Below are positions 3,226-55,807 of a DNA stretch of 55,807 nucleotides, piece after piece. Both the position numbers and the translations under genes were made by a program. Each line of letters begins with the position of its first letter. The first letter of the stretch is position 1. The notes beneath the pieces were generated by a model. That model saw only the letters and a program-made list of their open reading frames with translations. It was not told where the DNA came from and ran no database searches. Origin of the DNA: Nemertoderma westbladi (lineage: Eukaryota > Animalia > Xenacoelomorpha); contig JAUCBJ010006673.1 of the NCBI GenBank assembly GCA_032718475.1, forward strand, positions 1 to 55,807, in the 5' to 3' direction.

Positions 3226-3370
3226 TCTCCAACAAAAAATGGAAACTAAATTGGCTTGAATCAGCCACCTTAAAAGATCACATTTCCGGCAAAGCAATTT
3301 CTTCACTCATATCGCTGAGTGGAAATGGTGGAAATAAAAACCTATTTTTATTCTAAAAGTAGGATCTACA

Positions 3371-32300: not shown

Positions 32301-35300
32301 AGTAAATATATATAGGTAAGTGAACGAGGGAGCGGATATAGACAGTAAATATATATAGGTAAGTGAACGAGGGAGCGGATACAGACCGTAAAGTTATAGG
32401 TAAGTGAACGAGGGAGCTGATACAGACCGTAAAGATATAGGTAAGTGAACGAGGGAGCGGATATAGACAGTAAATATATATAGGTAAGTGAACGAGGGAG
32501 CGGATATAGACAGTAAATATATATAGGTAAGTGAACGAGGGAGCTGATATAGACCGTAAAGATATAGGTAAGTGAACGAGGGAGCGGATATAGACAGTAA
32601 ATATATATAGGTAAGTGAACGAGGGAGCGGATACAGACCGTAAAGTTATAGGTAAGTGAACGAGGGTGCTGATACAGACCGTAAAGATATAGGTAAGTGA
32701 ATGAGAGAGTGGATATAGACTGTAAAGATATAGGTAAGTGAACGAGGGTGCTGATACAGACCGTAAAGATATAGGTAAGTGAACGAGGGAGCTGATACAG
32801 ACCGTAAAGATATAGGTAAGTGAACGAGGGAGCGGATATAGACTGTAAAGTTATAGGTAAGTGAACGAGGGAGCTGATATAGACCGTAAAGATATAGGTA
32901 AGTGAACGAGGGAGCGGATACAGACCGTAATTGATATAGGTAAGTGAACGAGGGAGCTGATACAGACCGTAAAGATATAAAAAAGGTAAGTGAACGAGGG
33001 AGCGGATACAGACTGTAAAGATATAGGTAAGTGAACGAGGGAGCTGATACAGACCGTAAAGATATAGGTAAGTGAACGAGGGAGCGGATATAGACAGTAG
33101 AGATATAGGTAAGTGAACGAGGGAGCTGATACAGACCGTAAAGATATAGGTAAGTGAACGAGGGAGCGGATATAGACTGTAAAGATATAGGTAAGTGAAC
33201 GATGGAGCTGATACAGACCGTAAAGATATAGGTAAGTGAACGAGGGAGCTGATATAGACCGTAAAGATATTGGTAAGTGAACGAGGGAGCTGATATAGAC
33301 CGTAAAGATATAGGTAAGTGAACGAGGGAGCTGATATAGACCGTAAAGATATAGGTAAGTGAACGAGGGAGCGGATACAGACCGTAAAGTTATAGGTAAG
33401 TGAACGAGGGAGCTGATACAGACCGTAAAGATATAGGTAAGTGAACGAGGGAGCGGATATAGACAGTAAATATATATAGGTAAGTGAACGAGGGAGCGGA
33501 TATAGACAGTAAATATATATAGGTAAGTGAACGAGGGAGCGGATACAGACCGTAAAGTTATAGGTAAGTGAACGAGGGAGCTGATACAGACCGTAAAGAT
33601 ATAGGTAAGTGAACGAGGGAGCGGATATAGACAGTAAATATATATAGGTAAGTGAACGAGGGAGCGGATATAGACAGTAAATATATATAGGTAAGTGAAC
33701 GAGGGAGCTGATATAGACCGTAAAGATATAGGTAAGTGAACGAGGGAGCGGATATAGACAGTAAATATATATAGGTAAGTGAACGAGGGAGCGGATACAG
33801 ACCGTAAAGTTATAGGTAAGTGAACGAGGGTGCTGATACAGACCGTAAAGATATAGGTAAGTGAATGAGAGAGTGGATATAGACTGTAAAGATATAGGTA
33901 AGTGAACGAGGGTGCTGATACAGACCGTAAAGATATAGGTAAGTGAACGAGGGAGCTGATACAGACCGTAAAGATATAGGTAAGTGAACGAGGGAGCGGA
34001 TATAGACTGTAAAGTTATAGGTAAGTGAACGAGGGAGCTGATATAGACCGTAAAGATATAGGTAAGTGAACGAGGGAGCGGATACAGACCGTAATTGATA
34101 TAGGTAAGTGAACGAGGGAGCTGATACAGACCGTAAAGATATAAAAAAGGTAAGTGAACGAGGGAGCGGATACAGACTGTAAAGATATAGGTAAGTGAAC
34201 GAGGGAGCTGATACAGACCGTAAAGATATAGGTAAGTGAACGAGGGAGCGGATATAGACAGTAGAGATATAGGTAAGTGAACGAGGGAGCTGATACAGAC
34301 CGTAAAGATATAGGTAAGTGAACGAGGGAGCTGATATAGACCGTAAAGATATAGGTAAGTGAACGAGGGAGCTGATATAGACAGTAAAGATATAGGTAAG
34401 TGAACGAGGGAGCGGATATAGACTGTAAAGATATAGGTAAGTGAACGAGGGAGCTAATACAGACCATAAAGATATAGGTAAGTGAACGAGGGAGCGGATA
34501 CAGACCGTAAAGTTATAGGTAAGTGAACGAGGGAGCGGATATAGACAGTAGAGATATAGGTAAGTGAATGAGGGAGCTGATACAGACCGTAAAGATATAG
34601 GTAAGTGAACGAGGTAGCTGATACAGACCGTAAAGATATAGGTAAGTGAACGAGGGAGCTGATATAGACAGTAGAGATATAGGTAAGTGAATGAGGGAGC
34701 GGATATAGACCGTAAAGATATATAGGTAAGTGAACGAGGGAGCTGATACAGACCGTAAAGATATAGGTAAGTGAACGAGGGAGCTGATACAGACCGTAAA
34801 GATATAGGTAAGTGAACGAGGGAGCTGATACAGACCGTAAAGATATAGGTAAGTGAACGAGGGAGCTGATATAGACCGTAAAGATATATAGGTAAGTGAA
34901 CGAGGGAGCTGATACAGACCGTAGAGATATAGGTAAGTGAACGAGGGAGCGGATATAGACAGTAGAGATATAGGTAAGTGAACGAGGGAGCTGATACAGA
35001 CCGTAAAGATATAGGTAAGTGAACGAGGGAGCTGATATAGACCGTAAAGATATATAGGTAAGTGAACGAGGGAGCTGATACAGACCGTAAAGTTATAGGT
35101 AAGTGAACGAGGGAGCGGATACAGACCGTAAAGATATAGGTAAGTGAACGAGGGAGCTGATATAGACCGTAAAGATATATAGGTAAGTGAACGAGGGAGC
35201 TGATACAGACCGTAGAGATATAGGTAAGTGAACGAGGGAGCGGATATAGACAGTAGAGATATAGGTAAGTGAACGAGGGAGCGGATATAGACCGTAGAGA

Positions 35301-38300
35301 TATAGGTAAGTGAACGAGGGAGCGGATATAGACAGTAAATATATATAGGTAAGTGAATGAGGGAGCTGATACAGACCGTAAAGATATAGGTAAGTGAACG
35401 AGGGAGCTGATACAGACCGTAAAGATATAGGTAAGTGAACGAGGGAGCGGATATAGACAGTAAATATATAGGTAAGTGAACGAGGGAGCGGATACAGACA
35501 GTAAAGATATAGGTAAGTGAACGAGGGAGCGGATATAGACTGTAAAGATATAGGTAAGTGAACGATGGAGCTGATACAGACCGTAAAGATATAGGTAAGT
35601 GAACGAGGGAGCTGATATAGACCGTAAAGATATTGGTAAGTGAACGAGGGAGCTGATATAGACCGTAAAGATATAGGTAAGTGAACGAGGGAGCTGATTA
35701 GACCGTAAAGATATAGGTAAGTGAACGAGGGAGCGGATACAGACCGTAAAGTTATAGGTAAGTGAACGAGGGAGCTGATACAGACCGTAAAGATATAGGT
35801 AAGTGAACGAGGGAGCGGATATAGACAGTAAATATATATAGGTAAGTGAACGAGGGAGCGGATATAGACAGTAAATATATATAGGTAAGTGAACGAGGGA
35901 GCGGATACAGACCGTAAAGTTATAGGTAAGTGAACGAGGGAGCTGATACAGACCGTAAAGATATAGGTAAGTGAACGAGGGAGCGGATATAGACAGTAAA
36001 TATATATAGGTAAGTGAACGAGGGAGCGGATATAGACAGTAAATATATATAGGTAAGTGAACGAGGGAGCTGATATAGACCGTAAAGATATAGGTAAGTG
36101 AACGAGGGAGCGGATATAGACAGTAAATATATATAGGTAAGTGAACGAGGGAGCGGATACAGACCGTAAAGTTATAGGTAAGTGAACGAGGGAGCGGATA
36201 CAGACCGTAAAGTTATAGGTAAGTGAACGAGGGTGCTGATACAGACCGTAAAGATATAGGTAAGTGAACGAGGGAGCTGATACAGACCGTAAAGATATAG
36301 GTAAGTGAACGAGGGAGCGGATATAGACAGTAAAGATATAGGTAAGTGAACGAGGGAGCGGATATAGACTGTAAAGATATAGGTAAGTGAACGAGGGAGC
36401 TAATACAGACCATAAAGATATAGGTAAGTGAACGAGGGAGCGGATACAGACCGTAAAGTTATAGGTAAGTGAACGAGGGAGCTGATATAGACCGTAAAGA
36501 TATAGGTAAGTGAACGAGGGAGCGGATACAGACCGTAATTGATATAGGTAAGTGAACGAGGGAGCTGATACAGACCGTAAAGATATAAAAAAGGTAAGTG
36601 AACGAGGGAGCGGATACAGACTGTAAAGATATAGGTAAGTGAACGAGGGAGCGGATACAGACCGTAAAGATATAGGTAAGTGAACGAGGGAGCGGATACA
36701 GACCGTAATTGATATAGGTAAGTGAACGAGGGAGCTGATACAGACCGTAAAGATATAAAAAAGGTAAGTGAACGAGGGAGCGGATACAGACTGTAAAGAT
36801 ATAGGTAAGTGAACGAGGGAGCTGATACAGACCGTAAAGATATAGGTAAGTGAACGAGGGAGCGGATATAGACAGTAGAGATATAGGTAAGTGAACGAGG
36901 GAGCTGATACAGACCGTAATTGATATAGGTAAGTGAACGAGGGAGCTGATACAGACCGTAAAGATATAGGTAAGTGAACGAGGGAGCGGATACAGACCGT
37001 AATTGATATAGGTAAGTGAACGAGGGAGCTGATACAGACCGTAAAGATATAAAAAAGGTAAGTGAACGAGGGAGCGGATACAGACTGTAAAGATATAGGT
37101 AAGTGAACGAGGGAGCGGATACAGACCGTAAAGATATAGGTAAGTGAACGAGGGAGCGGATACAGACCGTAATTGATATAGGTAAGTGAACGAGGGAGCT
37201 GATACAGACCGTAAAGATATAAAAAAGGTAAGTGAACGAGGGAGCGGATACAGACTGTAAAGATATAGGTAAGTGAACGAGGGAGCTGATACAGACCGTA
37301 AAGATATAGGTAAGTGAACGAGGGAGCGGATATAGACAGTAGAGATATAGGTAAGTGAACGAGGGAGCTGATACAGACCGTAAAGATATAGGTAAGTGAA
37401 CGAGGGAGCTGATATAGACCGTAAAGATATAGGTAAGTGAACGAGGGAGCTGATATAGACAGTAAAGATATAGGTAAGTGAACGAGGGAGCGGATATAGA
37501 CTGTAAAGATATAGGTAAGTGAACGAGGGAGCTAATACAGACCATAAAGATATAGGTAAGTGAACGAGGGAGCGGATACAGACCGTAAAGTTATAGGTAA
37601 GTGAACGAGGGAGCGGATATAGACAGTAGAGATATAGGTAAGTGAATGAGGGAGCTGATACAGACCGTAAAGATATAGGTAAGTGAACGAGGGAGCTGAT
37701 ACAGACCGTAAAGATATAGGTAAGTGAACGAGGGAGCTGATATAGACAGTAGAGATATAGGTAAGTGAATGAGGGAGCGGATATAGACCGTAAAGATATA
37801 TAGGTAAGTGAACGAGGGAGCTGATACAGACCGTAAAGATATAGGTAAGTGAACGAGGGAGCTGATACAGACCGTAAAGATATAGGTAAGTGAACGAGGG
37901 AGCTGATACAGACCGTAAAGATATAGGTAAGTGAACGAGGGAGCTGATATAGACCGTAAAGATATATAGGTAAGTGAACGAGGGAGCTGATACAGACCGT
38001 AAAGATATAGGTAAGTGAACGAGGGAGCGGATATAGACAGTAGAGATATAGGTAAGTGAACGAGGGAGCGGATATAGACAGTAGAGATATAGGTAAGTGA
38101 ATGAGGGAGCTGATACAGACCGTAAAGATATAGGTAAGTGAACGAGGGAGCTGATACAGACCGTAAAGATATAGGTAAGTGAACGAGGGAGCGGATATAG
38201 ACAGTAAAGATATAGGTAAGTGAACGAGGGAGCTGATATAGACGGTAAAGATATAGGTAAGTGAACGAGGGAGCTGATTTAGACCGTAAAGATATAGGTA

Positions 38301-39686
38301 AGTGAACGAGGGAGCGGATATAGACAGTAGAGATATAGGTAAGTGAACGAGGGAGCTGATATAGACAGTAGAGATATAGGTAAGTGAACGAGGGAGCGGA
38401 TATAGACCGTAAAGATATAGGTAAGTGAACGAGGGAGCGGATATAGACAGTAGAGATATAGGTAAGTGAACGAGGGAGCTGATATAGACCGTAAAGATAT
38501 ATAGGTAAGTGAACGAGGGAGCTGATACAGACCGTAAAGATATAGGTAAGTGAACGAGGGAGCGGATATAGACAGTAGAGATATAGGTAAGTGAATGAGG
38601 GAGCGGATATAGACCGTAAAGATATAGGTAAGTGAACGAGGGAGCGGATATAGACAGTAGAGATATAGGTAAGTGAACGAGGGAGCTGATATAGACCGTA
38701 AAGATATATAGGTAAGTGAACGAGGGAGCTGATACAGACCGTAAAGATATAGGTAAGTGAACGAGGGAGCTGATACAGACCGTAAAGATATAGGTAAGTG
38801 AACGAGGGAGCGGATATAGACAGTAGAGATATAGGTAAGTGAACGAGGGAGCTGATATAGACAGTAGAGATATAGGTAAGTGAACGAGGGAGCGGATACA
38901 GATTGTAAAGATATAGGTAAGTGAACGAGGGAGCGGATACAGACCGTAAAGATATAGGTAAGTGAACGAGGGAGCGGATACAGACCGTAAAGTTATAGGT
39001 AAGTGAACGAGGGAGCTGATACCGTAAAGATATAGGTAAGTGAACGAGGGAGCTGATACAGACCGTAAATATATAGGTAAGTGAACGAGGGAGCTGATAC
39101 AGACCGTAAAGATATAGGTAAGTGAACGAGGGAGCTGATACAGACCGTAAAGATATAGGTAAGTGAACGAGGGAGCGGATACAGACCGTAAAGTTATAGG
39201 TAAGTGAACGAGGGAGCTGATACCGTAAAGATATAGGTAAGTGAACGAGGGAGCTGATACAGACCGTAAAGTTATAGGTAAGTGAACGAGGGAGCTGATA
39301 CAGACCGTAAAGATATAGGTAAGTGAACGAGGGAGCTGATACAGACCGTAAAGATATAGGTAAGTGAACGAGGGAGCTGATACAGACCGTAAAGATATAG
39401 GTAAGTGAACGAGGGAGCGGATACAGACCGTAAAGTTATAGGTAAGTGAACGAGGGAGCTGATACAGACCGTAAAGTTATAGGTAAGTGAACGAGGGAGC
39501 TGATACAGACCGTAAAGATATAGGTAAGTGAACGAGGGAGCTTATATAGACCGTAAAGATATAGGTAAGTGAACGAGGGAGCGGATATAGACCGTAAAGA
39601 TATAGGTAAGTGAACGAGGGAGCGGATACAGACCGTAAAGTTATAGGTAAGTGAACGAGGGAGCTTATATAGACCATAAAGATATA
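8344..39686 (+). repeat. ~31.3 kb tandem array of a 41-bp unit (~760 copies) derived from the KIDINS220 exon-2 end plus 5' splice site
   Basis: Consensus gtgaacgagggagc(g/t)gata(t/c)agac(c/a)gtaaagatatag|gtaa. The first unit overlaps coding sequence (V-N-E-G-A-D-I-D-R-K-D-I-G). The copy number is an estimate from length/41. Confidence 0.98.
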
Positions 39687-40758
39687 TTCCTGCCTGTTAT
39701 CAATCCTATGTGCGCCTTGTTTGGGTTGGGGTGCAGATTAAAAGGGGTTGAAGGGGAGGAACTTTCCGCTCTTCTTTGATTTATTGACGGTTTGGTTAAC
39801 TTTGTTTGGTTATATTCCGATTTTGTGTTAGAAGAATTGCTCAAATTTAGTTTGTATCTCATAACTGAGCCTCGTGCTGTGCGAAGGCCCCCACGAACGT
39901 CTACTCATTGTCAACCGGGCTCCATATAGAGACTCATTGTCGATTGTGGCCCCTGTGAAGTACAGCAGACTTTCTGCTGTTATATAATAGGACACGCTGC
40001 CAATGCCTTTACTGCATTAAAATAATTAACTGCTTTTATCTTAGATTCCCGAAGGCCACACGTAAATTATATTTGGAAAAATTCTCAACTTTTGACATAT
40101 TTATTTGTATACAATAAATACAAAGTTTGGTTAGAATTAATCGAGGATTGGCTGAGTTATTAACGTTTAAAATAAATATTGAGATCTACAAATCGACAGA
40201 CACACAGTTGAGATAGCGGTACCCGGCATTAGTTCATTTGGTCTTTAGGTTCTGCGTCTTCAGGTCATTCTTAACGGTAGTGCAGTTAGGTACAGTAGGT
40301 GCTCGCGGGTAAATATTAATACAATGCAAAGGGGGTAATATAGAAATAAAAATTATTATTCAACCCATGAATATTAATATTATTATTACCTTAGTTATAT
40401 TTGGGTGTCGACCTTCATCCCCTGTAATATTTCCTATACCCGCATGGCCATCATGTTCTTCGCACATTCATTTGCATATATAAATATTATTAACTTGATA
40501 CTACAGAATACATTTACGAAAATACCATCCTAGTTTTTTTTATCAGCAAATATATTTATAATATCACCCCAGTCAATAAATTTTGAAAATAACTGTGGCA
40601 TGATGGGATTCAATTTAGATATTGTTTATTGTTTTGGTTTAGAAAAGTCCGCCTCTGTAACCGGCTCCTTTCCATTACCCGTAATTGGTTTGGTACCATG
40701 GATATCGATTATTGTTTTGGTTACAAAACCGTCTCTGTAACCTTCTCCTTTCCCTTAA

Positions 40759-43088
40759 ACCTTGTCCAACGGGAAATAAAAAAAGCTAAATCTGAATATT
40801 TGTACAACAAAATAAGTGAGAATAAAGATAATCCAAAAAGTCTATGGTCTACCCTAAAATCTTTAGGTTATAAAAACCTTAAATCTAAATCGAATATTGT
40901 TCTGCAAGATAACGGTGAGCTGATTCATGATCATACTCTAGTTAGTAATTTATTTAATAATTATTTTACTAATGTTGCCTCTAATTTAGTTAAGAAATTA
41001 CCGTTATCAAGTAATAAATATAGTATAGGGTCCGAAACTCTAAATAATTTTTATTTAGAAAAGTTACAAAATTCAGAAAAGTTATTTTTAAAACCCGTTT
41101 CTGAGGATTTCGTTTTTAAAAATCTACTTAGCCTATCAGCCTCAAAAAGTACCGGTCTAGATCTAATACCTGCCCGTTTTCTTACGGATGGTGCTGAAGT
41201 ACTTAAAGTGCCTATTACTTTTATTATTAATTACTCTATCGTAGATAATGTAGTACCAGACGAACTGAAATTAGCTAAGGTTGTTCCTCTGTATAAAAAG
41301 AATAGTAAAGTAGAACCCTGTAATTACAGACCTGTTAGTATCTTAAGTATTGTATCTAAAATTCTAGAACGTTCTGTTTTTCTACAGCTGGAAGCACATC
41401 TTAGTAGGCTAAATCTGATCTATGAACTTCAGTCCGGTTTTCGTAAATCATATTCTACACCTGCCTTATTAACTTAACTGATACAATTAGATGTAATAAC
41501 GCAAAGGGTTTATATACTGGTATGGTAATGTTGGACCTACAAAAGGCTTTCGATACTGTAGATCACGAAATTCTGCTTGGTAAGTTAGGCCTGATGGGTG
41601 TAGGTTCTATAGACTGGTTCAAGTCCTACCTGTCAGACAGAGGTCAAACTGTAGTCATTAGCAAATCGCTGTCTACTGTACAAGAGATTACCTGTGGTGT
41701 ACCGCAAGGTAGTATATTAGGTCCTCTGCTTTGTGTATGCTATGTAAATGATATGATAGTAGTATAGATCCCGATTTTAAACTCATTTTATATGCCGACG
41801 ACAGTGCTCTTATTTTCTCTCATAAAGATCCTATCCATATTTCCCAAAAGTTAAGTGCAGTTCTAGAATCCTGTAATGAGTGGTTGATTGATAATAAGCT
41901 ATCCATTCACTACGGTAAAACTGAAAGTATTTTGTTTGGTTCCAAAAGAAAGTTAAAGAAGGTAACTAAGTTTGAAGTCACTAGTAATGGACATAAGATT
42001 GAAAATAAAAAGGAAGTTAAATATTTAGGCGCCACATTGGATAACTGCTTATCAGGAGAAAGCATAGCGAAAAATATTTTCTCGAAAGTTAACAGTAGGC
42101 TTAGGTTTCTATACAGAAATAAAAATAGTTTGAACACCGACTCCCGCAAGTTACTTTGCTCTTCTTTAATACAGTGTCACATGGACTATGCGTGCTCTTC
42201 TTGGTATGAAGGCTTAACCAAACAGCTTAAATGTAAATTACAAGTAGCTCAGAATAAAGTAGTACGATTTATTAAAGACTACAAACCTAGGCACCACCTA
42301 ACTCCAGATGACTTTTCTGAATCTGGACTACTTAACTTAGATAGTAGAGTTAAGCAGCTACGCCTTAACCATGTGCATAAAGTGTATAATGGTAAATGTC
42401 CCAATTACCTAAAACAAAAATTCAACAGAGTACGCGATACACACTCTTACAGTACCAGAGCTAGTGCTTCAAACTTCTACCTCCCGAATTGTAAATCCTT
42501 TGAATCTGATACTTTCTTTTTTAACGGCATAAAAAATTGGAACGCTCTGCCTAATGAAATTAAAAACCTAGATAATCAACATTCTTTTAAATCTGCAGTT
42601 AAATCTCACCTCCGTTTGCAATGTAAAAATAGGTACAATAGTCCTACAGTAAGTTATTAGTTTATTAATTATTTACTATTTATACTGTAATTACGTTTTA
42701 TAATAAATTGTTCTGTACATTACATCTTTATCGTTGAGTCGGGCATTGTCACGCTCTCGGTAAAGTTGTACATGTACATAGTGTAATTACGTTTTATAAT
42801 AAATTGTTCTGTACATTACATCTTTATTGTTGAGTCAGACATTGTCACGCTCTCGGTAAAGTTGTACATGTACATAGTGTAATTACGTTTTATATTGGTT
42901 TTAGGTTAGCGTAGTGTAATATTGTATTTGTAACCAAGTAACATAAAGGACCCCCTTGGAAATAAGCTGCAAAGCTTTAGGGGTAATCCTATATGTTATG
43001 TTGGACAATACCTTTATACCGGTACATTGTTTGGTGTATTTGTTATTGTTTTTACATAATGTATAAATAAATCTATCTATCTATCTAT
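40759..43088 (+). mobile_element. 5'-truncated, frameshifted non-LTR retrotransposon (CR1/L2 group)
   Basis: RT motifs NYRPVSILSIVSKILER, QSGFR, LDLQKAFDTVDH, GVPQGSILGPLL and YADD (41791-41802). Frameshifts near 41460 and 41757, stop at 42660. The 3' end is AATAAA plus a (TCTA)4 tail. Possible TTAA target duplication at 40755-58 and 43089-92. Confidence 0.92.
42686..42894 (+). repeat. 96-bp direct repeat (~2.2 copies) in the LINE 3' UTR
   Basis: tgtaattacgttttata... starts at 42686, 42782 and 42878. Confidence 0.9.
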
Positions 43089-43865
43089 TTAATTGTTATT
43101 CTATACCTATTAGAAAATAAGACTCTTACACCTGATTATTCCCCTCATTTGGTATTGATATTGTTTATTGTTTTGGTTAGAAATAAAAGCCTGAGTCTGT
43201 AATTTGCTCCTTTCCCTAAATTATGGCCAATGTTCGCGTATCCTAGTGGGTAAACGCTATTCCTACACGTACTTGTAACCTGCTTCTTTACTAACCTTCC
43301 TGCAATTAGGTGTAGGTGTGTGTGTAGGCCTAGCGTTTAACCCCACACCCCCCGTTTTTTTGTTTGTTTGTTATTGTTTGTACAGGTACTGTTGTACTGT
43401 ACCGTATTGTCTACAATTCCCGTAGTTTGTAACCTATAATAGTCTGATAGTGTGTATCGAGTGGCGTCGGTTCTGTATATGTGGACAAACATTGCAGACA
43501 CAACAGCACAAGTTGCTCCATACCGCACCGCGTACTGGTACCCCTGTATGATGGATGAGGGTGGGTCAGGGTGGGTGGGCTGGGCGGTCCTGAGGGTATT
43601 GCAATTACATTGTATTTTAATTTAGGTGCTTATTACTGTACAGCAGTATCAATACAGTACAGCAGTACCGGTAGGCCTATTGCTAAATTAATTGCCCTGG
43701 CTGTAAAATATATTTTTACCTACCAGTTGCCGGTAGGCCCTATACAAGCACAAGTCCTACTACAACAGTACTCTGGTAGGCTACTAGAAGTAACAGTCTC
43801 ACAGTACCGGTACCGGTACCAGTAATGCTGGAATTCTGTAGGTCTAATGCTGTACTGTTTCCGAT

Positions 43866-46800
43866 ATGTCTAACGCGACTCAACTGCGAGTGGATCGCAC
43901 CTCTATATCGTCATCCACAGACGGCGCCCCCCATTCCCCCTCCAATGCGTCCCCACCGCCACCGCCCCCCTGCAACCCATCCCTTCTACGCCGGACTCGA
44001 GCCGTCGCAGTCTTCTCCCTTCTCACTGCTTCCACGCCGGTGCGACGCGCTTACGATTCTCTAACCACCGCCTCCAACCAATCCAACATCGATTTAAACA
44101 CGGTATGTTTCGAGCGGCTCGACTTTCTCGAGGTTGACGCTCTAGACGCGTTCTACAACGCCGACGTCGTTGTCGTAGATATGTCGGTGGCCTCGCAGCA
44201 CTCTGGACTATTCTACCATCTGGGATTCCGGGACAGTTTCCGTATGTCTACCAACAAGGTTATCTGTCTCTATTATAACACGGATCCCCAAGTTGCCCTC
44301 TCTCTCAAACTCTCCTGTGCCAACAGTAACTACACCTTCATACAATACGTTGCTGAGTCTGACTCTGTTTTCATAGACAACCCCTGCGGACTGCACCCAT
44401 ACGTACCAGGACCTACAGCACCTTCGCGTGGTAACAACGGCCCATCACCCTCGGCATGTAGTAACTGCGACAAATATAAACGTGATTCACTGTCCATCCA
44501 TCTACACAGGCTACTCAAAGACATTCAAGTTGCCTCCAGTATGAACGCTAAAGAATTCTTCCTTAATGATCTCCGTAAGGTTCGCGAAAACCTCTCGACG
44601 CAGCCGGTAGAGTTCTCTCGCGAATTGTCACGTTTAAAACGACGAATGGACGACCCCAAACTATTCAGTTGCGACACGGTCCTTCAGATGTTACTGACCT
44701 ACAGGGAGATCCAGGACTACCATGCTATGGTCCACTTTGTGGAGGACGTTGATAGAGCTTTGCCAGACAACCGGATCACCTCCATCGGATGCATAACGCA
44801 TCTGTTCGCGTTCGCATTAAACAGACGGAATTCCCCAGGGGATAGGCAGCGTTCGTTATCCGTTGTAACTAAGGCTCTGGAGACCAAGGAGAATCACTTC
44901 CCAGACATGTTGTGTCTTTGTGGCCGAATCTATAAGGATTTATTTATCGACTCCGAGTATTCCGACTTAGAATCTCTTAGTAACGCGATTCTCTGGTACC
45001 GTAAAGGGTTTGAGATTCAACCCAACGAGTATGCTGGGATTAATCTCGCCACTTTGTTGGTCGTCTCTGGGGAAGAATTCTCAAAGTGTCCAGAGTTACA
45101 GAGGATTGCTATGACGCTCAATAATCTTATAGGCCGACGAGGTAATCTGGATACGATAGAAGACTATTGGATCATCGCGACCTTCTTTGAGATCAGTCTG
45201 TTAGCTGATGACGTCGGTAAGGCTGTACAGGCTGCCGAGTGTATGTTTAAACTGAAACCGCCGACCTGGTTTATTACCTCTACTCTACGCAACGTAAAGT
45301 TAATCAACACCTACCAGGGGCAGTGCACGGGGGATCCCCCCACTACAGACTCACATCGCTCGCTACAATTCTACCTTGAATTCTTCGTAGAAGCCACGAA
45401 GTCTCCCGTCAGCTCTATCCGATTCCCAGTACTGGTTCTCGAACCAAATAAAGTCTACCTGCCTAGTTACGTTACGGTGAACCTTGAAGACAATGGCAGC
45501 GATAAATCCGTGCGATTGTGGCATGTAAATGGCGATGATGATTGGGTTTTCCACGCGGAGAGTATCAGAAGTATCAGTATCTATAAACGCGATCAGCGGT
45601 GTATCTTCTTGTATGTTCAACACAACGGCGACGACTTCCAGATATTCTTCCCATCCGAAGATCAATGTCGTTGTTTCTACGAGTTGGTTGTGGAGATGCT
45701 CTGTGTCTGCGGATGTTCGGCGGGCGTCGAAGGTGAAGAGGACGACGACGGCGGTGAGTCGGAGGTGGTTTACGATTACGAGTACGACGATTTGGGTAGG
45801 AGAGTTGTGTTGGGGCAGGGGAGTTTCGGTGTCGTTTACGCCGGGAGGACCGTAGACACGCAGATTCGTGTCGCCATAAAGGAGGTCCCCGAGAGGGACA
45901 GTGGCGATGTTCAACCCCTTCATGAAGAAATCCGTCTGCACAAACGATTGAGTCACAAGAACATAGTGAAGTATCTTGGTTCCATTTCCGATAACGGCGT
46001 CTTTAAGATCTTTATGGAGTGCGTGCCGGGCGGCAGTCTAGCGGAACTGCTGCGAAGGAAATGGGGTCCCTTGAAGGACAACGAACACACGATGTCCTTC
46101 TATACGCGGCAGATAGTAGAAGGATTGAAGTATCTCCACGAAAATAAGATAGTCCACCGAGACATTAAAGGCGATAATGTTTTAGTAAACACGTACAGCG
46201 GGCAGTTAAAGATATCGGATTTTGGTACTAGTAAACGTCTGGCGGGTATAAACCCGTGCGCTGATACCTTTACTGGTACTATGCAGTACATGGCGCCGGA
46301 GGTGATCGCCAAGGGGTTGAGGGGTCACGGTGCCCCCGCTGATATATGGAGTCTCGGGTGTACAATCGTTGAGATGGCAACGGGTAAGCCCCCGTTCATA
46401 GAGTTGGGTGCGCCATCCGTCGCTATGTTTAAGGTCGGGATGTACAAGATGCATCCGGACATACCGGACAGTTTGTCCGACATCTGTAAGGAGTTTATGT
46501 TGATGTGTTTCGAGCCGGTCCCAGAGTTGCGTCCGACCTCTGCCGATCTACTGGATCACGCCTTCCTCTACAAAGTAAAGGGCGGTCGGCGGTCCACGGG
46601 GCTGCATATACCGGCCAAACCGCCGTCAACGGAGCGGAGTATATCGCTCCCGCTAGGCGGCGCTGCGGCAGACAGTCCCGCACCTCATCCCATGTCTCAC
46701 TACATCGGGTCTCCCGTAGCGACTATAGCGGAGTCGCCCAGCCCGGAACGTCGTCGGGACAACCCCCAGACTCCGGACAGTGTCCCGGACACTCCGTCCG

Positions 46801-47771
46801 GATTCTATATGATCCGGAAGGAGAGCGAACGTCGGAACACCTTGCTGAAAGTGTTGACGGACGACGCGGGGTTGCTATGCGACCTGTGGACCGAGCGAAT
46901 CGAGCAGGAGAACTCCGAGGTCTTATCGTCACAACTACAGTCGGTCCTATTGGTGGGATTACGTGACTACATACGGGACGAAGACGCGACTAAGTTAACC
47001 AAATCGATTAAATCGTTTCGGGCTGAGTTGGTAGGTTTGGATGCGGCTCGGGTCGCCTTGTATCTACTGCACGAACCGGTCACTACTGTACTGCGGCGGC
47101 GCAATGTGCAGCCCCATTGGCTGTTCGCTATAGACACTCGGTTGCGGGGGGTTATCGAACTGGTGCTGGCTATGCTGGAAGACGAGGATGGAGGGATGGT
47201 TGACGGGTTAGACACTGTGCGTGATGGGTTACACCCTGGGGGAGGCGGGTTACACCCCGGGGGTGGAGGGTTGCACCCCGGGGGTGGGGGGTTGCAACAC
47301 CTTATTGACGACGAGGCTGGCGTGTCCTCTGGTGTGTCCACTCTCAGCTCGACCCAACCCCCTTTTACCCACCGAGCTCACGAGGCCGAGCTCCGTTCCC
47401 AGTACCAGAGACTGACCCAGGAACATTCTGTACTTCTTGGTGAACTCGTGTCGGTCCAGCAGTCCTTCAACCAGATGCTCCACTCAACCATCGCACACAC
47501 CCGTCATTGTATGAACGCTCTATCAGCACTGTCCACTGCCTCCCGTGCCCCCCAGACCAATGATAATCGTTTGGATGACGTGGCACTCGCTGATTGGTTA
47601 ATCTCGCTTGGCGTACCAGACTCGGCTATAGAAGCTTTCTCAGCGGAAGAATATAGTTTGGATGATGTAGTACACTTTGTTACGAGAGAGGATCTCAGAC
47701 ACATGAAGTTGTCTGGAGCAGTACAGTCCCGTATTTGGGATGCTATAATTCGTTTAAGACAATCCAAGTGA
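43866..47771 (+). CDS. ASK1: ASK1-family MAP kinase kinase kinase (MAP3K5/MAP3K15-like), intronless, 1301 aa
   Basis: N-terminal LDF..DAFYNADVVVVDMS..LFYHLGFRDSF domain and TPR region (FAFALNRRN..GDR, CLCGRIYKD, YAGINLATLL), followed by a PH-like region. Kinase domain has LGQGSFG, VAIKE, HRDIKGDN, DFGTSKRLAGINP and TFTGTMQYMAPE. Also the RSISLP 14-3-3 site, a coiled coil and a C-terminal SAM domain. An in-frame stop at 43845 precedes the ATG. Confidence 0.96.
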   Translation: MSNATQLRVDRTSISSSTDGAPHSPSNASPPPPPPCNPSLLRRTRAVAVFSLLTASTPVRRAYDSLTTASNQSNIDLNTVCFERLDFLEVDALDAFYNADVVVVDMSVASQHSGLFYHLGFRDSFRMSTNKVICLYYNTDPQVALSLKLSCANSNYTFIQYVAESDSVFIDNPCGLHPYVPGPTAPSRGNNGPSPSACSNCDKYKRDSLSIHLHRLLKDIQVASSMNAKEFFLNDLRKVRENLSTQPVEFSRELSRLKRRMDDPKLFSCDTVLQMLLTYREIQDYHAMVHFVEDVDRALPDNRITSIGCITHLFAFALNRRNSPGDRQRSLSVVTKALETKENHFPDMLCLCGRIYKDLFIDSEYSDLESLSNAILWYRKGFEIQPNEYAGINLATLLVVSGEEFSKCPELQRIAMTLNNLIGRRGNLDTIEDYWIIATFFEISLLADDVGKAVQAAECMFKLKPPTWFITSTLRNVKLINTYQGQCTGDPPTTDSHRSLQFYLEFFVEATKSPVSSIRFPVLVLEPNKVYLPSYVTVNLEDNGSDKSVRLWHVNGDDDWVFHAESIRSISIYKRDQRCIFLYVQHNGDDFQIFFPSEDQCRCFYELVVEMLCVCGCSAGVEGEEDDDGGESEVVYDYEYDDLGRRVVLGQGSFGVVYAGRTVDTQIRVAIKEVPERDSGDVQPLHEEIRLHKRLSHKNIVKYLGSISDNGVFKIFMECVPGGSLAELLRRKWGPLKDNEHTMSFYTRQIVEGLKYLHENKIVHRDIKGDNVLVNTYSGQLKISDFGTSKRLAGINPCADTFTGTMQYMAPEVIAKGLRGHGAPADIWSLGCTIVEMATGKPPFIELGAPSVAMFKVGMYKMHPDIPDSLSDICKEFMLMCFEPVPELRPTSADLLDHAFLYKVKGGRRSTGLHIPAKPPSTERSISLPLGGAAADSPAPHPMSHYIGSPVATIAESPSPERRRDNPQTPDSVPDTPSGFYMIRKESERRNTLLKVLTDDAGLLCDLWTERIEQENSEVLSSQLQSVLLVGLRDYIRDEDATKLTKSIKSFRAELVGLDAARVALYLLHEPVTTVLRRRNVQPHWLFAIDTRLRGVIELVLAMLEDEDGGMVDGLDTVRDGLHPGGGGLHPGGGGLHPGGGGLQHLIDDEAGVSSGVSTLSSTQPPFTHRAHEAELRSQYQRLTQEHSVLLGELVSVQQSFNQMLHSTIAHTRHCMNALSALSTASRAPQTNDNRLDDVALADWLISLGVPDSAIEAFSAEEYSLDDVVHFVTREDLRHMKLSGAVQSRIWDAIIRLRQSK

Positions 47772-47960
47772 TTTACAGCTAATTTATTTCAATCATTTAT
47801 TGTGATTTTAATTTGTAAATTATTAATATATTACTTACTTTGTATTTGTTGATGCTTTGCATTGTGCTTTATGTTTTAATTCACTAGCGCCCTCTCTTAA
47901 AATTATCATTTATTTGTTAGTTACAGTTTTTATTGATTTTTAAAAGATTCGCAGTAGTAA

Positions 47961-48018
47961 AATAAAGTGATAACTTGTATTGAGGCAATTCAACTTATCC
48001 TTTTTTTTGTATTGTGTG
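47961..48018 (+). terminator. Candidate polyadenylation signal of the ASK gene
   Basis: AATAAA at 47961-47966, 190 nt after the stop, followed by a U/GU-rich stretch ttttttttgtattgtgtg at 48001. Confidence 0.55.
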
Positions 48019-48802
48019 ACCAATCTTCCAAACAACATTTCAACCTGTTTCGCGGCTACTCAATTTCATTATAAAGTCTTAATTGTTTTACTCCAGCAAG
48101 ATTTAGGGTGGGAGGAGTTGGGGGTTGAGCTTTACCTTTTATAGGTTAAAAAATTCAAAAACCTTATTTTTGTCGACCATTAAAGCCCCTATACTTTGAC
48201 TGACAAACCAACAGACAGACAAGCATCTAGACAGACAGCATAACAAGATTTTCCGAACTCAAAACTGACATCAGAAATGAAATCGACGACCGCGAAAACC
48301 CCCGCAGTTAAAATTCCAGCGGTCTGTCAAGAAAGCATATATGCTTCCTTTCCTTAATAACATTCACGCCGCCATTTTTAATCAATTCGTTTGAAATTTT
48401 CAGTGAATGGTCTTGACATATTGACCAATAAAACTTGTAGACAGAATTTTGAGATAGTTACAATCCAAGGAGTTTTGGAGTAGTTACATTTTGAAAAATA
48501 CTACCAGTAAAATCTGAATGATATGGACGAAAATACAATTAAAAAAAAACGAAAATAGAATTTATAGGTATCTTCTGAAAGTCGGTTATCTAACTTACAC
48601 TTGGTTAAGTGTCTATTAATTTGGTTGCCATGGGAACTAGTACCTATTGTATTTCTATTTGGCCTCAATTTTGCACCTTACCCTATATAAGAAAGCTGTC
48701 AGTATTCCAATATGTTCCATATTTTGACAACTTATCAGCGAAATCATTTTAATCGGAATGCTGCAATGCGGATAAATTTGAAAATCTTACTGGTGTGCCG
48801 GC

Positions 48803-49000
48803 TTATCGGCAAAATTGCGCAGCCACAACGACCTTGGTACCCATGATTTTCGCGAGATTATCTGCATCTTCGAGGTCAGTGTTCATGGTGGATGCCCACA
48901 CCCAGTACCAACCATGCTTATTCACTCCATCATTGCGCCAAAGCACAAGATCGTGCACTGGCTGGTCCTCACGGCGACAGCAATGTCCTGCAACACATGC
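48803..49000 (-). mobile_element. Degenerate fragment resembling the C-terminus of an RTE-clade LINE ORF
   Basis: VAGHCCRREDQPVHDLVLW...TDLEDADNLAKIM resembles the xAGHCxR..P..xVLW...TGL..L...M C-terminal pattern of RTE elements (from recall). Confidence 0.45.
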
Positions 49001-49027
49001 TGACATGGAAAGTTTCCATAGCAACCA

Positions 49028-50247
49028 TCTATTCTTGGACCGGTACTATTTCTGATTTATATTAATGATATTACAGAATGTTCATCCATTCTAAATTTTG
49101 TTCTTTTTGCCGATGACACGAATATTTTCCACTCAGGATCTGTCTTAAATATACTCATTGATCAACTTAACAGCGAATTACTTAATATATATAAATGGCT
49201 TGCAACAAATAAACTATCCCTAAATTTAGATAAAACTAAGTTTATAATATTTTCTACTAAACAATACAGCTGGGCAAACCAACACATTTTGATTAACGGA
49301 AACTTAATCGAAAAAGTAAATGAAATGAAATTTCTTGGAATTATTATAAGTAGTGATTTAAAATGGAACAAGCATATTCAATACATACGACTAAAAATAG
49401 CTAAAAATGTGGGAATTCTTGGTAAACTTAAACATTTCATCCCGTACAAAATTCGCCTGACATTATACCACACACTGATCCGCCCATATCTCACATTCGC
49501 ACTTACGGTATGGGGCAATGGTGCCAGTTCAAATAGTACAGCTACAAATTCATTACTTATTTTACAAAAAAGGGCAATTCGCTACATACACTTAAAACAT
49601 TCACAATACCATACAGAGGAACTCATGAAAACCCAGAACGAATTAACACTATCTAATATATATAAATATCAATGTTTACTTTTCATGTACAAATCTATTA
49701 ATGGAAAACTAGATCTTCCAGAAAATTTAAAATCTATTTTAATAGTAAATCGACAGTTTCACAATTACAACACTCGTACATTGTACAATATTCATCTTCC
49801 TCTATATCGCAAATCATTAACTCAAACTGCAGTAACTTACCAAGGCCCACTATACTGGAATGACCTTCTCCCTGAAATACGCAGATCTCCTACATTAAAT
49901 CAATTCAAAAATAATCTCAAAAAAGGATTACTGACTTCCCAACACAAGGTAAACAAATAAAATACAGTATCTACTGTACATAAGCATAAATATTGTTCAA
50001 TAAGGAATAAACAAAGACTGCCGAACAGTGTAATACCAAAATACCAATGAGACATAACTTTATTATTTTATAAGCTTTTTAAGTGCCAAATAAGCTTGCT
50101 TCCGGCACCTTAACTAGCACGTTGGTACCAGGGGGGGGGGGGTAGTTTTTTTTTTTTTTTTTTTGTATATTAATTGCATGTTATAATTATTCACTAAACA
50201 TTATACAACGAATATTAAAGGCTTGGGCGGGCCGCTAAACCGTGCCT

Positions 50248-50277
<30 letters not shown>
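49028..50277 (+). mobile_element. 5'-truncated non-LTR retrotransposon (CR1/L2 group) with poly(A) tail
   Basis: Open frame from 49028: SILGPVLFLIYINDI..FADD (49106-17)..WLATNKLSLNLDKTK..KFLGIII..LKWNKHI, stop at 49960. 28-nt A run at 50252-79. Candidate TSD AACCA at 49023-27 and 50278-82. Confidence 0.92.
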
Positions 50278-50281
<4 letters not shown>

Positions 50282-50458
50282 AAATGAAGCGATATTTAGA
50301 CCAACAATATGATACTGGCTATTAGAAGATACAAATCGTATATTTTCGTTGATATTTCAACGAGTTAATCAAAAGTGAAATCGTATTCACCCTGTATTAT
50401 TATTATAAAAAAGGGCAGAGTAATTACTATTTACTTCAAGATACACTGAAGAGGTTCT

Positions 50459-50490
<32 letters not shown>

Positions 50491-50784
50491 TACAGATGGC
50501 GTCACACCTGCAATTCCTGTATAATATTGTCTAAAAACTGATCTGACATACCCCCCAGTAGGCCTAAGGTTGCACCGTACAGTTTGTAGAAAGTCAGCAA
50601 AATGAAAGTAAAGTGGTAGCTGACCTGTACCGGTAATGGGCCTACGCCTAACTCATACGTGTTACTACGCATACTCATATTTCAAAAATAAGTCATAAAA
50701 AAAGCCCGTAAACGGCCATTTGTCTTAGTTCGAGTCGATTACTACTGTATATATATATTAACGAATCACGCCATGGTGTCGGCA

Positions 50785-51825
50785 GATTCCCCGTACTTAG
50801 TTCCAATTTAAGCCTCATGCGAATTTAGTTCCAATGGAAACGAATTTAGTTCCAATTTTGGCGAATTTAGTTCCAATTTAGGCGAACTTAGTTCCAATAA
50901 CTAGAGAGAAACGAAAACGAACTTAGTTCCAATGCATGCGAACTTAGTTCCAATGTATGCGAACTTAGTTCCAATAGATGCGAATTTAGTTCCAAGGGAA
51001 GCGAATTTAGTTCCAATGTTTCAGGTGTGAGGCGAGCCACGTAGTTGGCGAAGAATCTGTTTAATGACACTATTTTAACTAACCCATAACGCCCAACCTC
51101 CTAACCAAAACTATCTTATCCCAAACAACGCCCAACCTCTTAACCCAAACAATTCAATTAAGTTCATTATATTTAATCATTTAAAATGATTATTCATTGT
51201 AAAAAACAATGCCTACGCTCTTAACCCAAACTACGCCCAACCTCCTAACCCAATCAACGCCCATCCACCTAAACCGAAACAACTGGTAAATATTGTAATT
51301 GATGTGAAAATGGCACAATGTGCATGACTTGAGTAGGCCTATATAATAATACTACAGACTCAGTCAGTCAGTATCAGTATACTCGCGAGTTGTTATTAAT
51401 ATATATTTCCAAATGTGTAATTATACATTTAATTCATTAATAATAATTCGTTGTTTAAAAATGACAGAAGGGTTTTACAATTATTTACAATTATTGTTGA
51501 CCCTGACCCACCCCAAATAGTGGCAATACGCAATAGGCTTCGCCTACTACGCCCTACGATTGAAACATTGACATTGTAACTAAGTTCGTAACCATTGGAA
51601 CTAAATTCGCTTCCATTGGAACTAAATTCGCTTCCATTGGAACTAAATTCGCATGCATTGGAACTAAATTCGCATGCATTGGAACTAAATTCACATCCAT
51701 TGGAACTAAATTCACATACATTGGAACTAAGTTAGTTTTGATATTCTGGGATTGGAACTAAGTTCGCCTCGATTGGAACTAAGTTCGCTTTGTAAACTTT
51801 ATTTTGGAACTAAATTCGTGCTACC
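50785..51825. mobile_element. Non-autonomous foldback/Mutator-like element with modular inverted repeats and a 9-bp TSD
   Basis: Left arm of ~20-bp gcgaaYttagttccaat.. repeats (50795-51017) and right arm of the inverse ..attggaactaaRttcgc (51575-51820). Flanked by identical gtgtcggca at 50776-84 and 51826-34. G...C termini. Confidence 0.85.
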
Positions 51826-52460
51826 GTGTCGGCACAGTAAAATAAGAAATAAAATATAATTAAATGCACAGCGCAGTATTTTAAAACAGATTAGATTTAA
51901 TTAAAGTAAATAAATAAAGGTCGGAGTTTAAAATAGGCAAACTAGGGGGTGGGGCAAAACAATGTTGCCCAGTGTCGAAGTGGCTCGTGGTTCGCGGTGC
52001 ACTCAGTGAGATTATAAAGTGTGGCGGTATCCCCATCAGACGGAACCTACAGTCAATGCCTGGGGCGTGATATCCCGTTGTACAACAAATTAAGTTGTGG
52101 AACACCCATGGCAACTAAAGCGGGTTGTCACGTGGCGTAGGGGTTGGTTAGACTCTGCCCAACTTCTGTTTGTAAAACCCGGTGATCGCCAGAATTCAGG
52201 AGTAATTTCGGCCATTTTAATCGCTTGGAGTTCGGCGTATTGTCGAGTCCATTACTGGCATAGGAATACTTATATAAGGAATTTGGTGAATAACCACAAA
52301 AGGCCAAATCTTGTGAAAATTAAATCTGAAAAAAAGGGGATTTCTCTATCTAAAGAATTAATGTTCAGGTTTTGGTGTGATATTCAGAATATAGGAACTT
52401 CAGAACTGTCAACGGCTGTTGTGTTTGATTATTTATTTATTGTTTGTATTATTATTACAG

Positions 52461-52629
52461 GCGGGTGGACTGCTATTACTTGGGCTGCGTACAATGGTTA
52501 TCTTCCGATCGCAGAGACCCTTGCACGTGGCTGCGTTTCATTGGATCTGAGGGATGTTCACAACGTAACACCTTTAATATGGGCCGCCGGAAGGGGTCAT
52601 TTCGCTCTAGTTCGATTTTTACTTGCGAG
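52461..52629 (+). CDS. KIDINS220: KIDINS220 exon 3 (ankyrin repeats)
   Basis: Acceptor ttattacag|GC. Translates GWTAITWAAYNGYLPIAETLARG..VTPLIWAAGRGHFALVRFLLA, matching Kidins220 IIWAAGRGH. Phase-2 donor AG|gtaagt at 52630. Confidence 0.92.
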
Positions 52630-53318: not shown

Positions 53319-55807
53319 ATCGGTGGATGTGCACGCTAGCGATAAGTACGGGTCTACGGCCTTGTTATGGGCGTGTCGACGGGGTCATGTCGAATGCGCT
53401 CGAGCGCTACTAGAGGGCGGTGCGACGGTAGACGCGATCGGGATGCACGGATGGACACCGCTGATCGCGGCTACGCGCGTTGGCAACGCGGCCTTAGTCG
53501 CGCTGTTGCTAGGTTACCGACCCAACGTGAACACGCGCGACCGCCGCGGTGCTACTGCCGTGTTCCCGGCGTGTCGCCGAGGATCCCTCGAGATTCTGCG
53601 ACTTCTCGTCTCTCATAAACCCTACCTGGACGTCACCAACGGCGCGGGTAACACGCCGCTGTTACTAGCGGCGCGCGGGGGGCATAGCGAGGTGGTGAGA
53701 CTGCTCCTGAGTCAGAACCGAGTCGACGTGAACAAACCGGGAAAGGAAGGGAAAACTCCGCTGTACACGGCGGTAGAGAGGAAACACATCGGGATCGTCG
53801 AGCAACTCCTGGAGTCGGGAGCCAACGTCGACGTATTTTGCGACGCCGGGGAAACGCCGTTGATTAAAGCGACGCGAATCGGCAATGAGAGGATCGTAGC
53901 TGCGTTGCTAGGTAACGGGGCGCGGGTGTCGCTTAGCGACCGACGCGGTGATACCGCCGTGCACATTGCGGTCCGCGGCGGGATGCAGACCGTCGTTGAG
54001 TTGCTTCTCTCGAACCCGCGGAATGGACGACTCCTCTACCGACCCAACAAACTCGGCGAGATCCCCTACAGGATGAACGCATCGCTGCCTCGCTCTGTCC
54101 TCGGTAACATATTCGGGGTATCCCGTAGCAACGCCGACGCTACCGACCGGTTGCTAGGCTACGATCTGTACTCGAGTTCGGTGGCGGACTTCCTCTCCGA
54201 GCCGGGACTCGTCACTCCTATCACCGTGGCTCTCTACGCGAGTTGGACTTCTGGGAAGAATCGGTTGCTCAACAACCTCACCGAGGATATGCGGGTGTTC
54301 GCCAGTCAGGGGGACCTGGAGTTGCTGAAGTTCTCCTGGTCTGTGGTCGCTGTAGTGACGTCATTGAGTCTTGTCGTCGGTCTTCTTACTTTCGCGGCTT
54401 GCGGTGCGGATTACCGTTACGGGTTACTGGCGGCGAGTGTGTTCGCGTTGGTGGTCTCACTCGTGTTGGCGATGGTCTGTGCTGGCGCGGAGCGCGCCGA
54501 ATGGCCCTGGGCGGTGACCTCGTCGCTGTGGCTGCGTCGACGCTGTGATCGTTTCGGTCTCGCCGCTTCCGTGGCGTTCCGTCGACCGGGACCTCCGTCT
54601 GCCCATCCCAGTCCGTCCGACCGACCCATCCGCTACTTGTTCGCCCGTAGAGCCGCCACCTACTCCGGCTCCGGGGAGGCCACCGTGGCCCGTCTAATCG
54701 CCACTCTACTCGACGTTTTAGAAAGCAACTTCGGTCTTATTGCCTGTCGTATATTCGCCGCCCTTCGTTCCAGAACTAAAACCAACGCAGATGACGGAGG
54801 TTACTCCTGTGAACAGTATTCTAGAACGCGTTGCTATTGCCTTCTCCCTAATATTGTTTGGGTTTTACTAATTGCTATATTTTTATTCGCTACTGCGGCT
54901 CTACTAACTGCTTATATATTCGTAGACTCGTCTTCTGTTCTTATCTTTCTTAAAGGTTTCTCCATCTCTCTGTTCGCACTACTCCTCTCCTTCTCTTGGC
55001 CTCTCGGTAAGTTTATTTACTCACTTTGTTACTCGGAGTCCCGCCGTATTCGGGACTTCCCGGAATCCGCTTCCGGTGGTCTCTCCCCGGACGACGGACT
55101 GCTCGCTCTCCTCCGGGACCAGGTCCAGTTCATCTCGGAGTTGGTCCGACTCATCGACGGGTTCGGGAGCCAGCAGAGTCGGCTTGTCCTCGTCGTCGAC
55201 CAATTGGACGCGAGCGGACCCGAGCATCTGATGGGCGTGCTGGACGCGGTGCATCAGCTGTTCGGTTGCCTAGCGACCGGTCCCTTTGTGGTCGTCGTCT
55301 CGGTTGACCCCAGGGTTGTGGTCCGCGCCGTGGAGCAGGGCCTCCCCTCGCGGCTCGCCCCTTACTTATCCGGATACTCTTACCTGCGTAACATCGTCCA
55401 CCTCCCCTTCTATTTGAAGGATCATCCGGTTGAACGAAGGCCGAACCGCCGCAAATATTCATCGATTAAAGGGAATCTCCCGAAGGACTCTGCCAACCGG
55501 AGGTTCTCCGAAGCCGGGTTGAGTCGTTCCTGCAGCGTGTCGCTCGTCGACATATCCAAAGTTCTCGAGGGTAACGACTTCTACTCGGAGGTGGGGCCGC
55601 ACAATCTCCGACGTATGGCCAACTCGGTAGCGATCACTGGCCGACTGCTGCGCGCTTACAACGTGTCCTTCGACTGGGAGCGCCTCGCCTCCTGGGTACA
55701 TCTCGTCGAGAAGTGGCCATACAAGGTCTCCTGGTTGGTCTACGTCTGGATGGAGGGGAGCACCCCGGACGGGACCACACTGAAGGAACTCTACGAGTCG
55801 GTGGCGG
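53319..55807 (+). CDS. KIDINS220: KIDINS220 exon 4 (partial; ankyrin repeats, KAP NTPase with inserted TM segments), open to the window end
   Basis: Acceptor ttttag|A. Translates SDKYGSTALLWACRRGHVEC, GETPLIKATR, LLLSNPRNGRLLYRPNKLGEIPY, LGYDLYSSSVADFLSEP, LYASWTSGKN, hydrophobic TM pairs, RLVLVVDQLDAS, GYSYLRNIVHLPFYL and ITGRLLRAYNVSFDWERLASWVHLVEKWPY. All are diagnostic of Kidins220. Missing from the ORF track because there is no stop in the window. Confidence 0.95.

Follow-up and report, generated by a model that had tools for sequence, protein, structure and literature searches.

The window analysed here, the 55,807 nucleotides (nt) of contig JAUCBJ010006673.1 from Nemertoderma westbladi (assembly GCA_032718475.1), carries on its forward strand four exons of a KIDINS220 gene and, within the predicted second KIDINS220 intron, a complete coding sequence for an ASK-family MAP3K in a single exon. 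A preliminary description of this DNA had claimed an intact 3.9-kb single-exon open reading frame with all ASK domains, situated between KIDINS220 exons 2 and 3 in the same orientation. Both parts of that claim are borne out, the first by translation, Pfam and structure matches and the second by in-frame, gapless tiling of the exons on homologues. The features on which the argument turns are as follows.

6191..6343, + strand: KIDINS220 coding exon 1, with ATG and phase-0 donor (homologue tiling; no Pfam match alone)
8233..8383, + strand: KIDINS220 exon 2, ankyrin, phase-1 donor (Pfam, homologue tiling)
8384..52460, + strand: KIDINS220 intron 2, 44,077 nt, contains ASK (exon borders, alignment)
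43866..47771, + strand: single-exon ASK-family MAP3K coding sequence, 1301 amino acids (translation, Pfam, structure matches)
52461..52629, + strand: KIDINS220 exon 3, ankyrin, phase 1 to phase 2 (Pfam, homologue tiling)
53319..55807 and beyond the window end, + strand: KIDINS220 exon 4, intron-free over at least 2489 nt, with ankyrin repeats and KAP NTPase (Pfam, homologue matches)

An ASK Gene Within KIDINS220 Intron 2

The four KIDINS220 exons have canonical GT-AG borders and join to 987 codons with no stops. They map to residues 2–52, 53–102, 104–158 and 160–1008 of a shark KIDINS220 (P0125), and this end-to-end tiling was the best local match in seven of nine homologues; in the remaining pair (P0203 and P0200), a later ankyrin repeat gave exon 2 its highest score. 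Global alignment with three mammalian homologues, including P0203, placed no gaps within 10 codons on each side of any of the three junctions. The joined product contains ankyrin repeats (PF12796) and a KAP NTPase domain (PF07693), the hallmarks of KIDINS220/ARMS over the part within the window. Exon 4 is 35–37% identical to named KIDINS220 proteins with 100% of its length covered, and the top identity of the host among its KIDINS220 matches is 41–42%. The pair of an ATG at 4329 and a donor at 4432 was dropped as host exon 1 in favor of 6191–6343, which aligns to residues 2–52. Because the flanking exons join in frame and tile homologues gaplessly, ASK lies, in its entirety, within KIDINS220 intron 2, and from frame and homology we infer that exon 2 is spliced to exon 3 over it.

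The ASK coding sequence comprises 1301 codons and a stop, with zero internal stops on translation. Pfam matches on the protein are DRHyd-ASK (residues 66–100), MAP3K_TRAF_bd (115–506), ASK_PH (517–611), a kinase domain (648–901) and HisK-N-like (981–1107); PF20309, PF13281, PF20308 and PF19039 score above the Pfam cut-off. Residues 61–930 align to the human ASK1 structure 8QGY (E 2e-257), and the C-terminus matches the ASK3 SAM domain structure 6V0M (E 7.5e-10). When aligned to the human domain, the kinase is intact, with a glycine loop at 650, AIK at 670, HRD at 764, DFG at 785 and APE at 810, and the activation-loop threonines 801 and 805 are retained. With catalytic residues and activation-loop threonines in place, the kinase domain is predicted from its motifs to be active. 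C-terminal to it, a 14-3-3-type motif at 924–929 aligns to its human counterpart. The DRHyd domain, TPR region, PH domain, kinase motifs, SAM domain and 14-3-3-type motif by which an ASK-family MAP3K is recognized are thus all present. Within the reading frame, 47226–47293 holds a 21-bp repeat in 3.2 copies, which encodes a glycine-rich seven-residue repeat and leaves the frame unbroken.

The best named matches of the protein are MAP3K5/15-like sequences of hemichordates, echinoderms, amphioxus, molluscs, annelids and insects, mostly at 43–48% identity. The highest identity among the 120 best full-length hits is 54%, and the conserved core, compared with 1.84 billion cluster representatives, reaches 57–58% identity for the best three. 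Neither a copy of the exact sequence nor any protein from the same species or a close relative occurred in the protein collection searched. In a FastTree phylogeny of 46 sequences and 775 columns, vertebrate MAP3K5 and MAP3K15 form a clade of their own (0.99), and the query falls outside it, placed weakly (0.33) beside Ambulacraria, with amphioxus and Trichoplax nearby; its terminal branch (0.55) is between those of amphioxus (0.44) and Trichoplax (0.64). The label ASK1 given to the gene at first is therefore too narrow, since the tree does not join the protein to MAP3K5 while leaving MAP3K15 out. Judged by its sequence relationships, the gene is best called a pro-orthologue of ASK1/2/3.

Soundness of the Nesting

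Three repeated elements in intron 2 bear on whether the nesting is real.

8346..39686, + strand: 41-bp tandem array, ~760 copies, 31 kb (repeat analysis)
40593..42660, + strand: broken reverse-transcriptase fragment of the long interspersed nuclear element (LINE) type, upstream of ASK (RVT_1, E 3.2e-06 on 41752–42657, below the curated cut-off)
49022..50279, + strand: second LINE-type fragment, followed by an A28 run (27% protein identity to the upstream fragment)

Pfam gave no match on the 40593–41474 part of the upstream LINE fragment. This fragment is flanked by a 56-nt repeat, 80% identical, at 40618–40673 and 43157–43215. Both LINE fragments, which are unrelated, lie in the host sense direction and contribute extra AATAAA signals to intron 2.

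It is very improbable that a faulty assembly, whether at the array or at the LINE fragments, created the nesting. The array, at 31 kb and 93% identity, exceeds many long reads, and its length may be wrong; in addition, repeats lie on both sides of ASK. A mis-join at the array that created the nesting is nevertheless unlikely, because the array unit is the end of exon 2 itself and the next exon follows in the correct order and phase. A wrong join inside the array would therefore still connect exon 2 and exon 3 of one gene. Variant frequencies along the array shift gradually, with no step, and the window contains no ambiguous base N. Since the two LINE fragments flanking ASK are only 27% alike in protein, they cannot serve as a matching pair, and on this figure both a LINE-mediated move and a LINE-mediated mis-join were rejected. 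A false insertion of ASK would, moreover, take two errors returning to one locus. The length of the array is less certain than the nesting.

Intron Loss in ASK and Its Host

A scan of metagenome contigs found 26 animal ASK loci. Introns were mapped in 12 of these, which were picked for split alignments and include some near-duplicates; all 12 carry introns, at 41 distinct positions. Six positions are common to arthropod-like and non-arthropod-like loci (148/0, 283/0, 319/2, 414/1, 521/0 and 719/0, given as query residue/phase), and none of the 41, these six included, is present in the window's gene. Because six intron positions that recur across such distant loci are missing here, the lack of introns in ASK is a derived condition, and on this point the earlier interpretation is supported. 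Among the 14 loci that were not mapped, L001, L002, L003 and L005 align almost without breaks and could represent either transcripts or additional ASK genes that lack introns; the remainder are near-duplicates or short. Isoform indels revealed no vertebrate N-terminal exon borders. No KIDINS220 match was found near ASK at the 26 loci, most of which have short flanks.

MAP3K5 has about 30 exons, and the preliminary description had set the single exon of the window's gene against the many introns of vertebrate ASK1. The intron loss stands; its special character is overstated by this comparison, because the host has also been stripped of old introns. Human KIDINS220 has 30 exons (PMC11431642), and a variant table gives 13 of its intron positions between c.108 and c.3011 (PMC11302933). 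The host retains none of these 13 exactly, and one is offset by 1 nt. Its three introns map to mammalian c.156, c.307 and c.476, intron 2 (c.307) lying one base from the human intron after c.306; the offset could reflect either sliding or independent gain. All three are confined to the first 160 codons and are followed by at least 2489 intron-free nucleotides. Such a 5′ bias of introns is the pattern expected from reverse-transcription-mediated intron loss. Taken together, the two genes suggest a lineage-wide process of intron turnover or loss. For comparison, the mean number of exons per gene is 3.3 in Nemertoderma (PMC10565955) and 8.5 in Xenoturbella (PMC11521371).

The route by which ASK entered the intron is unreadable from its flanks, because neither a poly(A) tail nor a target-site repeat remains. 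The longest A-run in the 430 nt past the ASK stop is 6 nt, and no direct repeat of at least 11 nt is shared between the flanks, in agreement with the earlier statement that no genomic poly(A) remnant or target-site duplication was seen. Loss of both marks by decay is expected in an old copy. The GC content at third codon positions (GC3) is 0.59 in ASK and 0.64 in the host, with a codon-usage correlation of 0.62, and most non-coding sequence near ASK has 31–38% GC. The GC3 and codon use of ASK against these AT-richer surroundings are consistent with long residence.

If ASK were an extra retrocopy with a narrow (e.g., germline) role, an intron-containing parent elsewhere would do the main job. 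Every ancestral intron is indeed gone from ASK, LINE reverse transcriptases occur in the genome, and the conservation of ASK is slightly under that of most homologues; same-strand nested genes in Drosophila are also enriched for testis expression (PMC3814207). We nonetheless regard this explanation as improbable. The poly(A) tail and the target-site repeat were both not found, all regulatory domains are retained, and the branch is not long. Furthermore, no special event is needed to explain an intronless ASK, because the host gene is intron-poor as well.

Probable Expression of ASK and Its Possible Effect on the Host

The sequence around the ASK frame offers the following candidate signals.

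43200..43865, + strand: sequence ahead of the ASK start codon, a candidate promoter or 5′ leader (sequence inspection)
43898..43921, + strand: candidate phase-1 acceptor inside the ASK N-terminus, splicing to which would fuse exon 2 of KIDINS220, in frame, at ASK residue 19 (sequence only)
47961..47966, + strand: nearest AATAAA 3′ of the ASK stop (190 nt downstream), predicted to be the poly(A) signal of ASK

The predicted poly(A) signal is preceded by a 3′ region with 48% T and followed by a T/GT-rich tract. On this evidence and that of the preceding sections, we favor, at a probability of about 0.55, the reading that ASK forms a gene in its own right, with a start and a poly(A) site of its own, that its introns were lost via a reverse-transcribed copy, and that it is likely the animal's working ASK. 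The cDNA route would have been taken either by a retrocopy that replaced its parent or by intron loss in place followed by a move, and the gene would have its own promoter and be present in a single copy. Splicing of the host from exon 2 to exon 3 would span 44 kb and would use the most upstream of the 731 donors, in the way known from human F7. The absence of internal splice sites would make a same-strand passenger tolerable, and ASK transcription would cut short a fraction of the host transcripts, in the manner of H13/Mcts2. The predicted function of the protein, in line with what is established for the family, is that of a redox and stress MAP3K that signals to p38/JNK.

Several observations weigh against this reading. 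ASK keeps 271 of 288 near-invariant columns (94%), while 33 of 36 homologues, scored alike, keep at least 96.5%, by a measure that favors sequences with close kin in the set; some relaxation of constraint is thus possible. The ASK ATG is preceded, at distances of 41 and 19 nt, by two out-of-frame ATGs (43825 and 43847), one of which starts a 79-codon frame that overlaps ASK; this is awkward for a simple ASK leader. In an unbiased 6-mer test of similarity to the presumed host promoter, the ASK upstream region did not stand out, ranking third of 37 segments (z 1.4). Lastly, the lineage-wide intron loss is drawn from n = 2 genes. Promoter-like motifs common to 43.2–44.2 kb and 4.0–4.5 kb had been picked by eye and were discarded, as they were unsupported by the 6-mer test; the residue of that comparison is one 33-nt low-complexity match (E 0.001).

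In the main rival explanation, ASK belongs to the KIDINS220 transcription unit as an alternative last exon, with one promoter for both. Two variants are conceivable: a shared non-coding first exon may be spliced to an acceptor at 43386–43727, or exon 2 may be spliced in frame to 43921, which would put three ankyrin repeats in front of ASK. Use of either an ASK acceptor with the poly(A) site at 47961 or exon 3 would then make the two proteins mutually exclusive per transcript. Splicing to the phase-1 AG at 43921 would continue the frame of exon 2 and skip both upstream ATGs. Several T-rich acceptor-like sites lie within 500 nt upstream of the ASK ATG (first exon base 43386, 43626 and 43727), an acceptor-like site at 6138 before host exon 1 hints at a non-coding first exon, and CPNE1/RBM12 provides a precedent with a common promoter and non-coding exons (PMC2568002). 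However, the 43921 site has T at 6 of 20 positions, as against 10, 13 and 10 of 20 at the three host acceptors. Of 876 intronic AGs, about 7% reach an equal score, and seven phase-1 AGs occur in the first 430 nt of the frame; one such site is therefore expected by chance. The frame also stays open for 18 codons 5′ of this AG, up to an ATG. No host exon is needed for ASK, because its N-terminus is already of normal length (query residue 96 pairs with residues 54–128, median 101, in 40 homologues), and none of 201 ASK-search hits has an ankyrin match. Finally, exon 1 or exons 1–2 joined to 43626 run into a stop before ASK. On balance, shared exons are possible but doubtful.

A bolder form of this idea, which we think quite unlikely, makes KIDINS220 and the animal's only ASK two outputs of one unit, governed by a splice/poly(A) choice in intron 2, with the 731 exon-derived U1-binding sites as a length-variable control. 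Each transcript might then be switched between a growth-factor scaffold and a stress kinase, possibly with an ankyrin–ASK fusion. Should ASK indeed draw on exons of its host, a single decision in RNA processing would determine how much survival scaffold is made relative to death kinase.

The preliminary description proposed that the poly(A) site of ASK would truncate host transcripts; this is plausible. Such truncation is known for the sense-strand retrogene of H13/Mcts2, where the mechanism has been demonstrated, and at this locus it would hold by analogy. The shared MAPK role, also noted in that description, is weak evidence of coupling, because the pathways differ and nested pairs are less co-expressed than neighbors. 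ASK signals to p38/JNK (PMC8705584), and KIDINS220 feeds neurotrophin Ras-MAPK and PI3K signaling (PMC11408833); co-expression of nested pairs in Drosophila is below that of neighboring genes (PMC3814207).

The Exon 2 Donor Array and Other Repeats

The unit of the 41-bp array consists of the final 38 nt of KIDINS220 exon 2 and the first 3 intron bases. The array holds 731 donor-like sites between 8384 and 39647, 728 of which have the full donor consensus, and the exonic copy of the unit differs from the consensus unit at 3 of 41 positions. The real host donor is the weaker variant, matching the U1 consensus at 7 of 11 positions versus 8 of 11 for downstream copies. The host must use this first donor, because any downstream array donor, from 8424 on, shifts the frame and adds stops at once. 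At human F7, splicing uses the 5′-most of the repeated donors even where stronger copies compete with it (Borensztajn et al., 2006, PMC1557585). The donor array, with several hundred copies, would be a natural test of first-come splice-site choice and is arguably more striking than the nested gene.

Two other ideas about the array were considered. A function as recursive-splice sites was rejected in view of the purine-rich run upstream of the unit's AG. The birth of intron 2 by tandem duplication of exon sequence is less likely, given that 728 of 731 units open with the full donor consensus and that the 3′ end of the intron is unlike the array unit, although it would explain the 1-nt offset from the human position.

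The genome appears prone to tandem arrays, because the window has others, one of them inside the ASK frame. An array of 42 bp x 12 lies upstream of KIDINS220 at 3370–3872, and one of 17 bp x 23, at 52755–53153, fills most of intron 3. Between ASK and exon 3, at 50790–51830, two facing arrays of 21-bp units form long inverted repeats of ~190 nt at 81%, like a foldback element or miniature inverted-repeat transposable element. Near the start of the window, a 54-nt inverted repeat (768–821 and 1285–1338, 96% identity) surrounds ~460 nt; this element is likely a small non-autonomous DNA transposon.

Comparison With Known Systems

The presence of ASK in a KIDINS220 intron is a known kind of arrangement; the pairing itself is unreported among the literature matches listed, which held neither an ASK–KIDINS220 link nor an intronless ASK (supplementary gene lists lie outside that search). 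As an ordinary nested gene, ASK adds one more case, with an unusually large and conserved passenger. Beyond this, the locus points to an animal lineage with rebuilt intron positions, as ASK and host both lack the old ones and the host's three match no human position examined.

Nested genes in Drosophila lie opposite to their hosts in 71.27% of cases and on the host strand in 28.7% (Lee and Chang, 2013, PMC3814207); in humans the opposite-strand share is two-thirds, and the functions of host and nested gene are for the most part unrelated (PMC4394429). The initial remark that nested genes are more often antisense accords with these figures, but the arrangement is less surprising than it was taken to be, since the combination of same strand and single exon is the expected pairing: 72.53% of same-strand Drosophila nested genes have one exon, which is ascribed to selection against mis-splicing (PMC3814207). 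ASK resembles these genes in strand and exon number. Most of them have short coding sequences (median 817.5 nt), evolve fast and are biased to the testis (PMC3814207), whereas ASK is a conserved signaling gene of 3.9 kb.

The closest precedent is mouse H13/Mcts2, in which a sense-strand retro-derived gene occupies an early host intron, as at ASK (PMC13309782). There, nested transcription drives early termination of the host, which may apply to ASK by analogy. For Mcts2, the parent (Mcts1) is known and the promoter is an imprinted CpG island, and H13 ends at its own intronic poly(A) sites (PMC13309782); the passenger of the window, in contrast, is a 1301-residue multidomain kinase with a putative promoter. 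The model for shared exons is CPNE1/RBM12, in which two unrelated proteins are made from one promoter with shared non-coding exons (PMC2568002). Exon sharing at that locus was shown by cDNA and reverse-transcription PCR, whereas the acceptors at ASK are candidates.

As a protein, the window's ASK has the same order of parts as the known ASK MAP3Ks (human MAP3K5/6/15 and invertebrate Ask1), i.e., thioredoxin-binding, TPR, PH, kinase, 14-3-3-type motif, HisK-N-like and SAM (PMC8705584). It differs from human MAP3K5/15 in falling outside the vertebrate ASK clade and from the other invertebrate ASK loci examined, which have up to 17 mapped introns, in its one coding exon. The donor array, for its part, is matched by the minisatellite of human F7 intron 7, the first unit of which likewise spans the exon–intron border, with silent donor copies downstream (PMC1557585). 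Here, the unit is 41 bp, the donor sites number 731 over 31 kb and the downstream copies are one base nearer the U1 consensus. The array is thus a giant arrangement of the F7 type, known in kind and large in scale.

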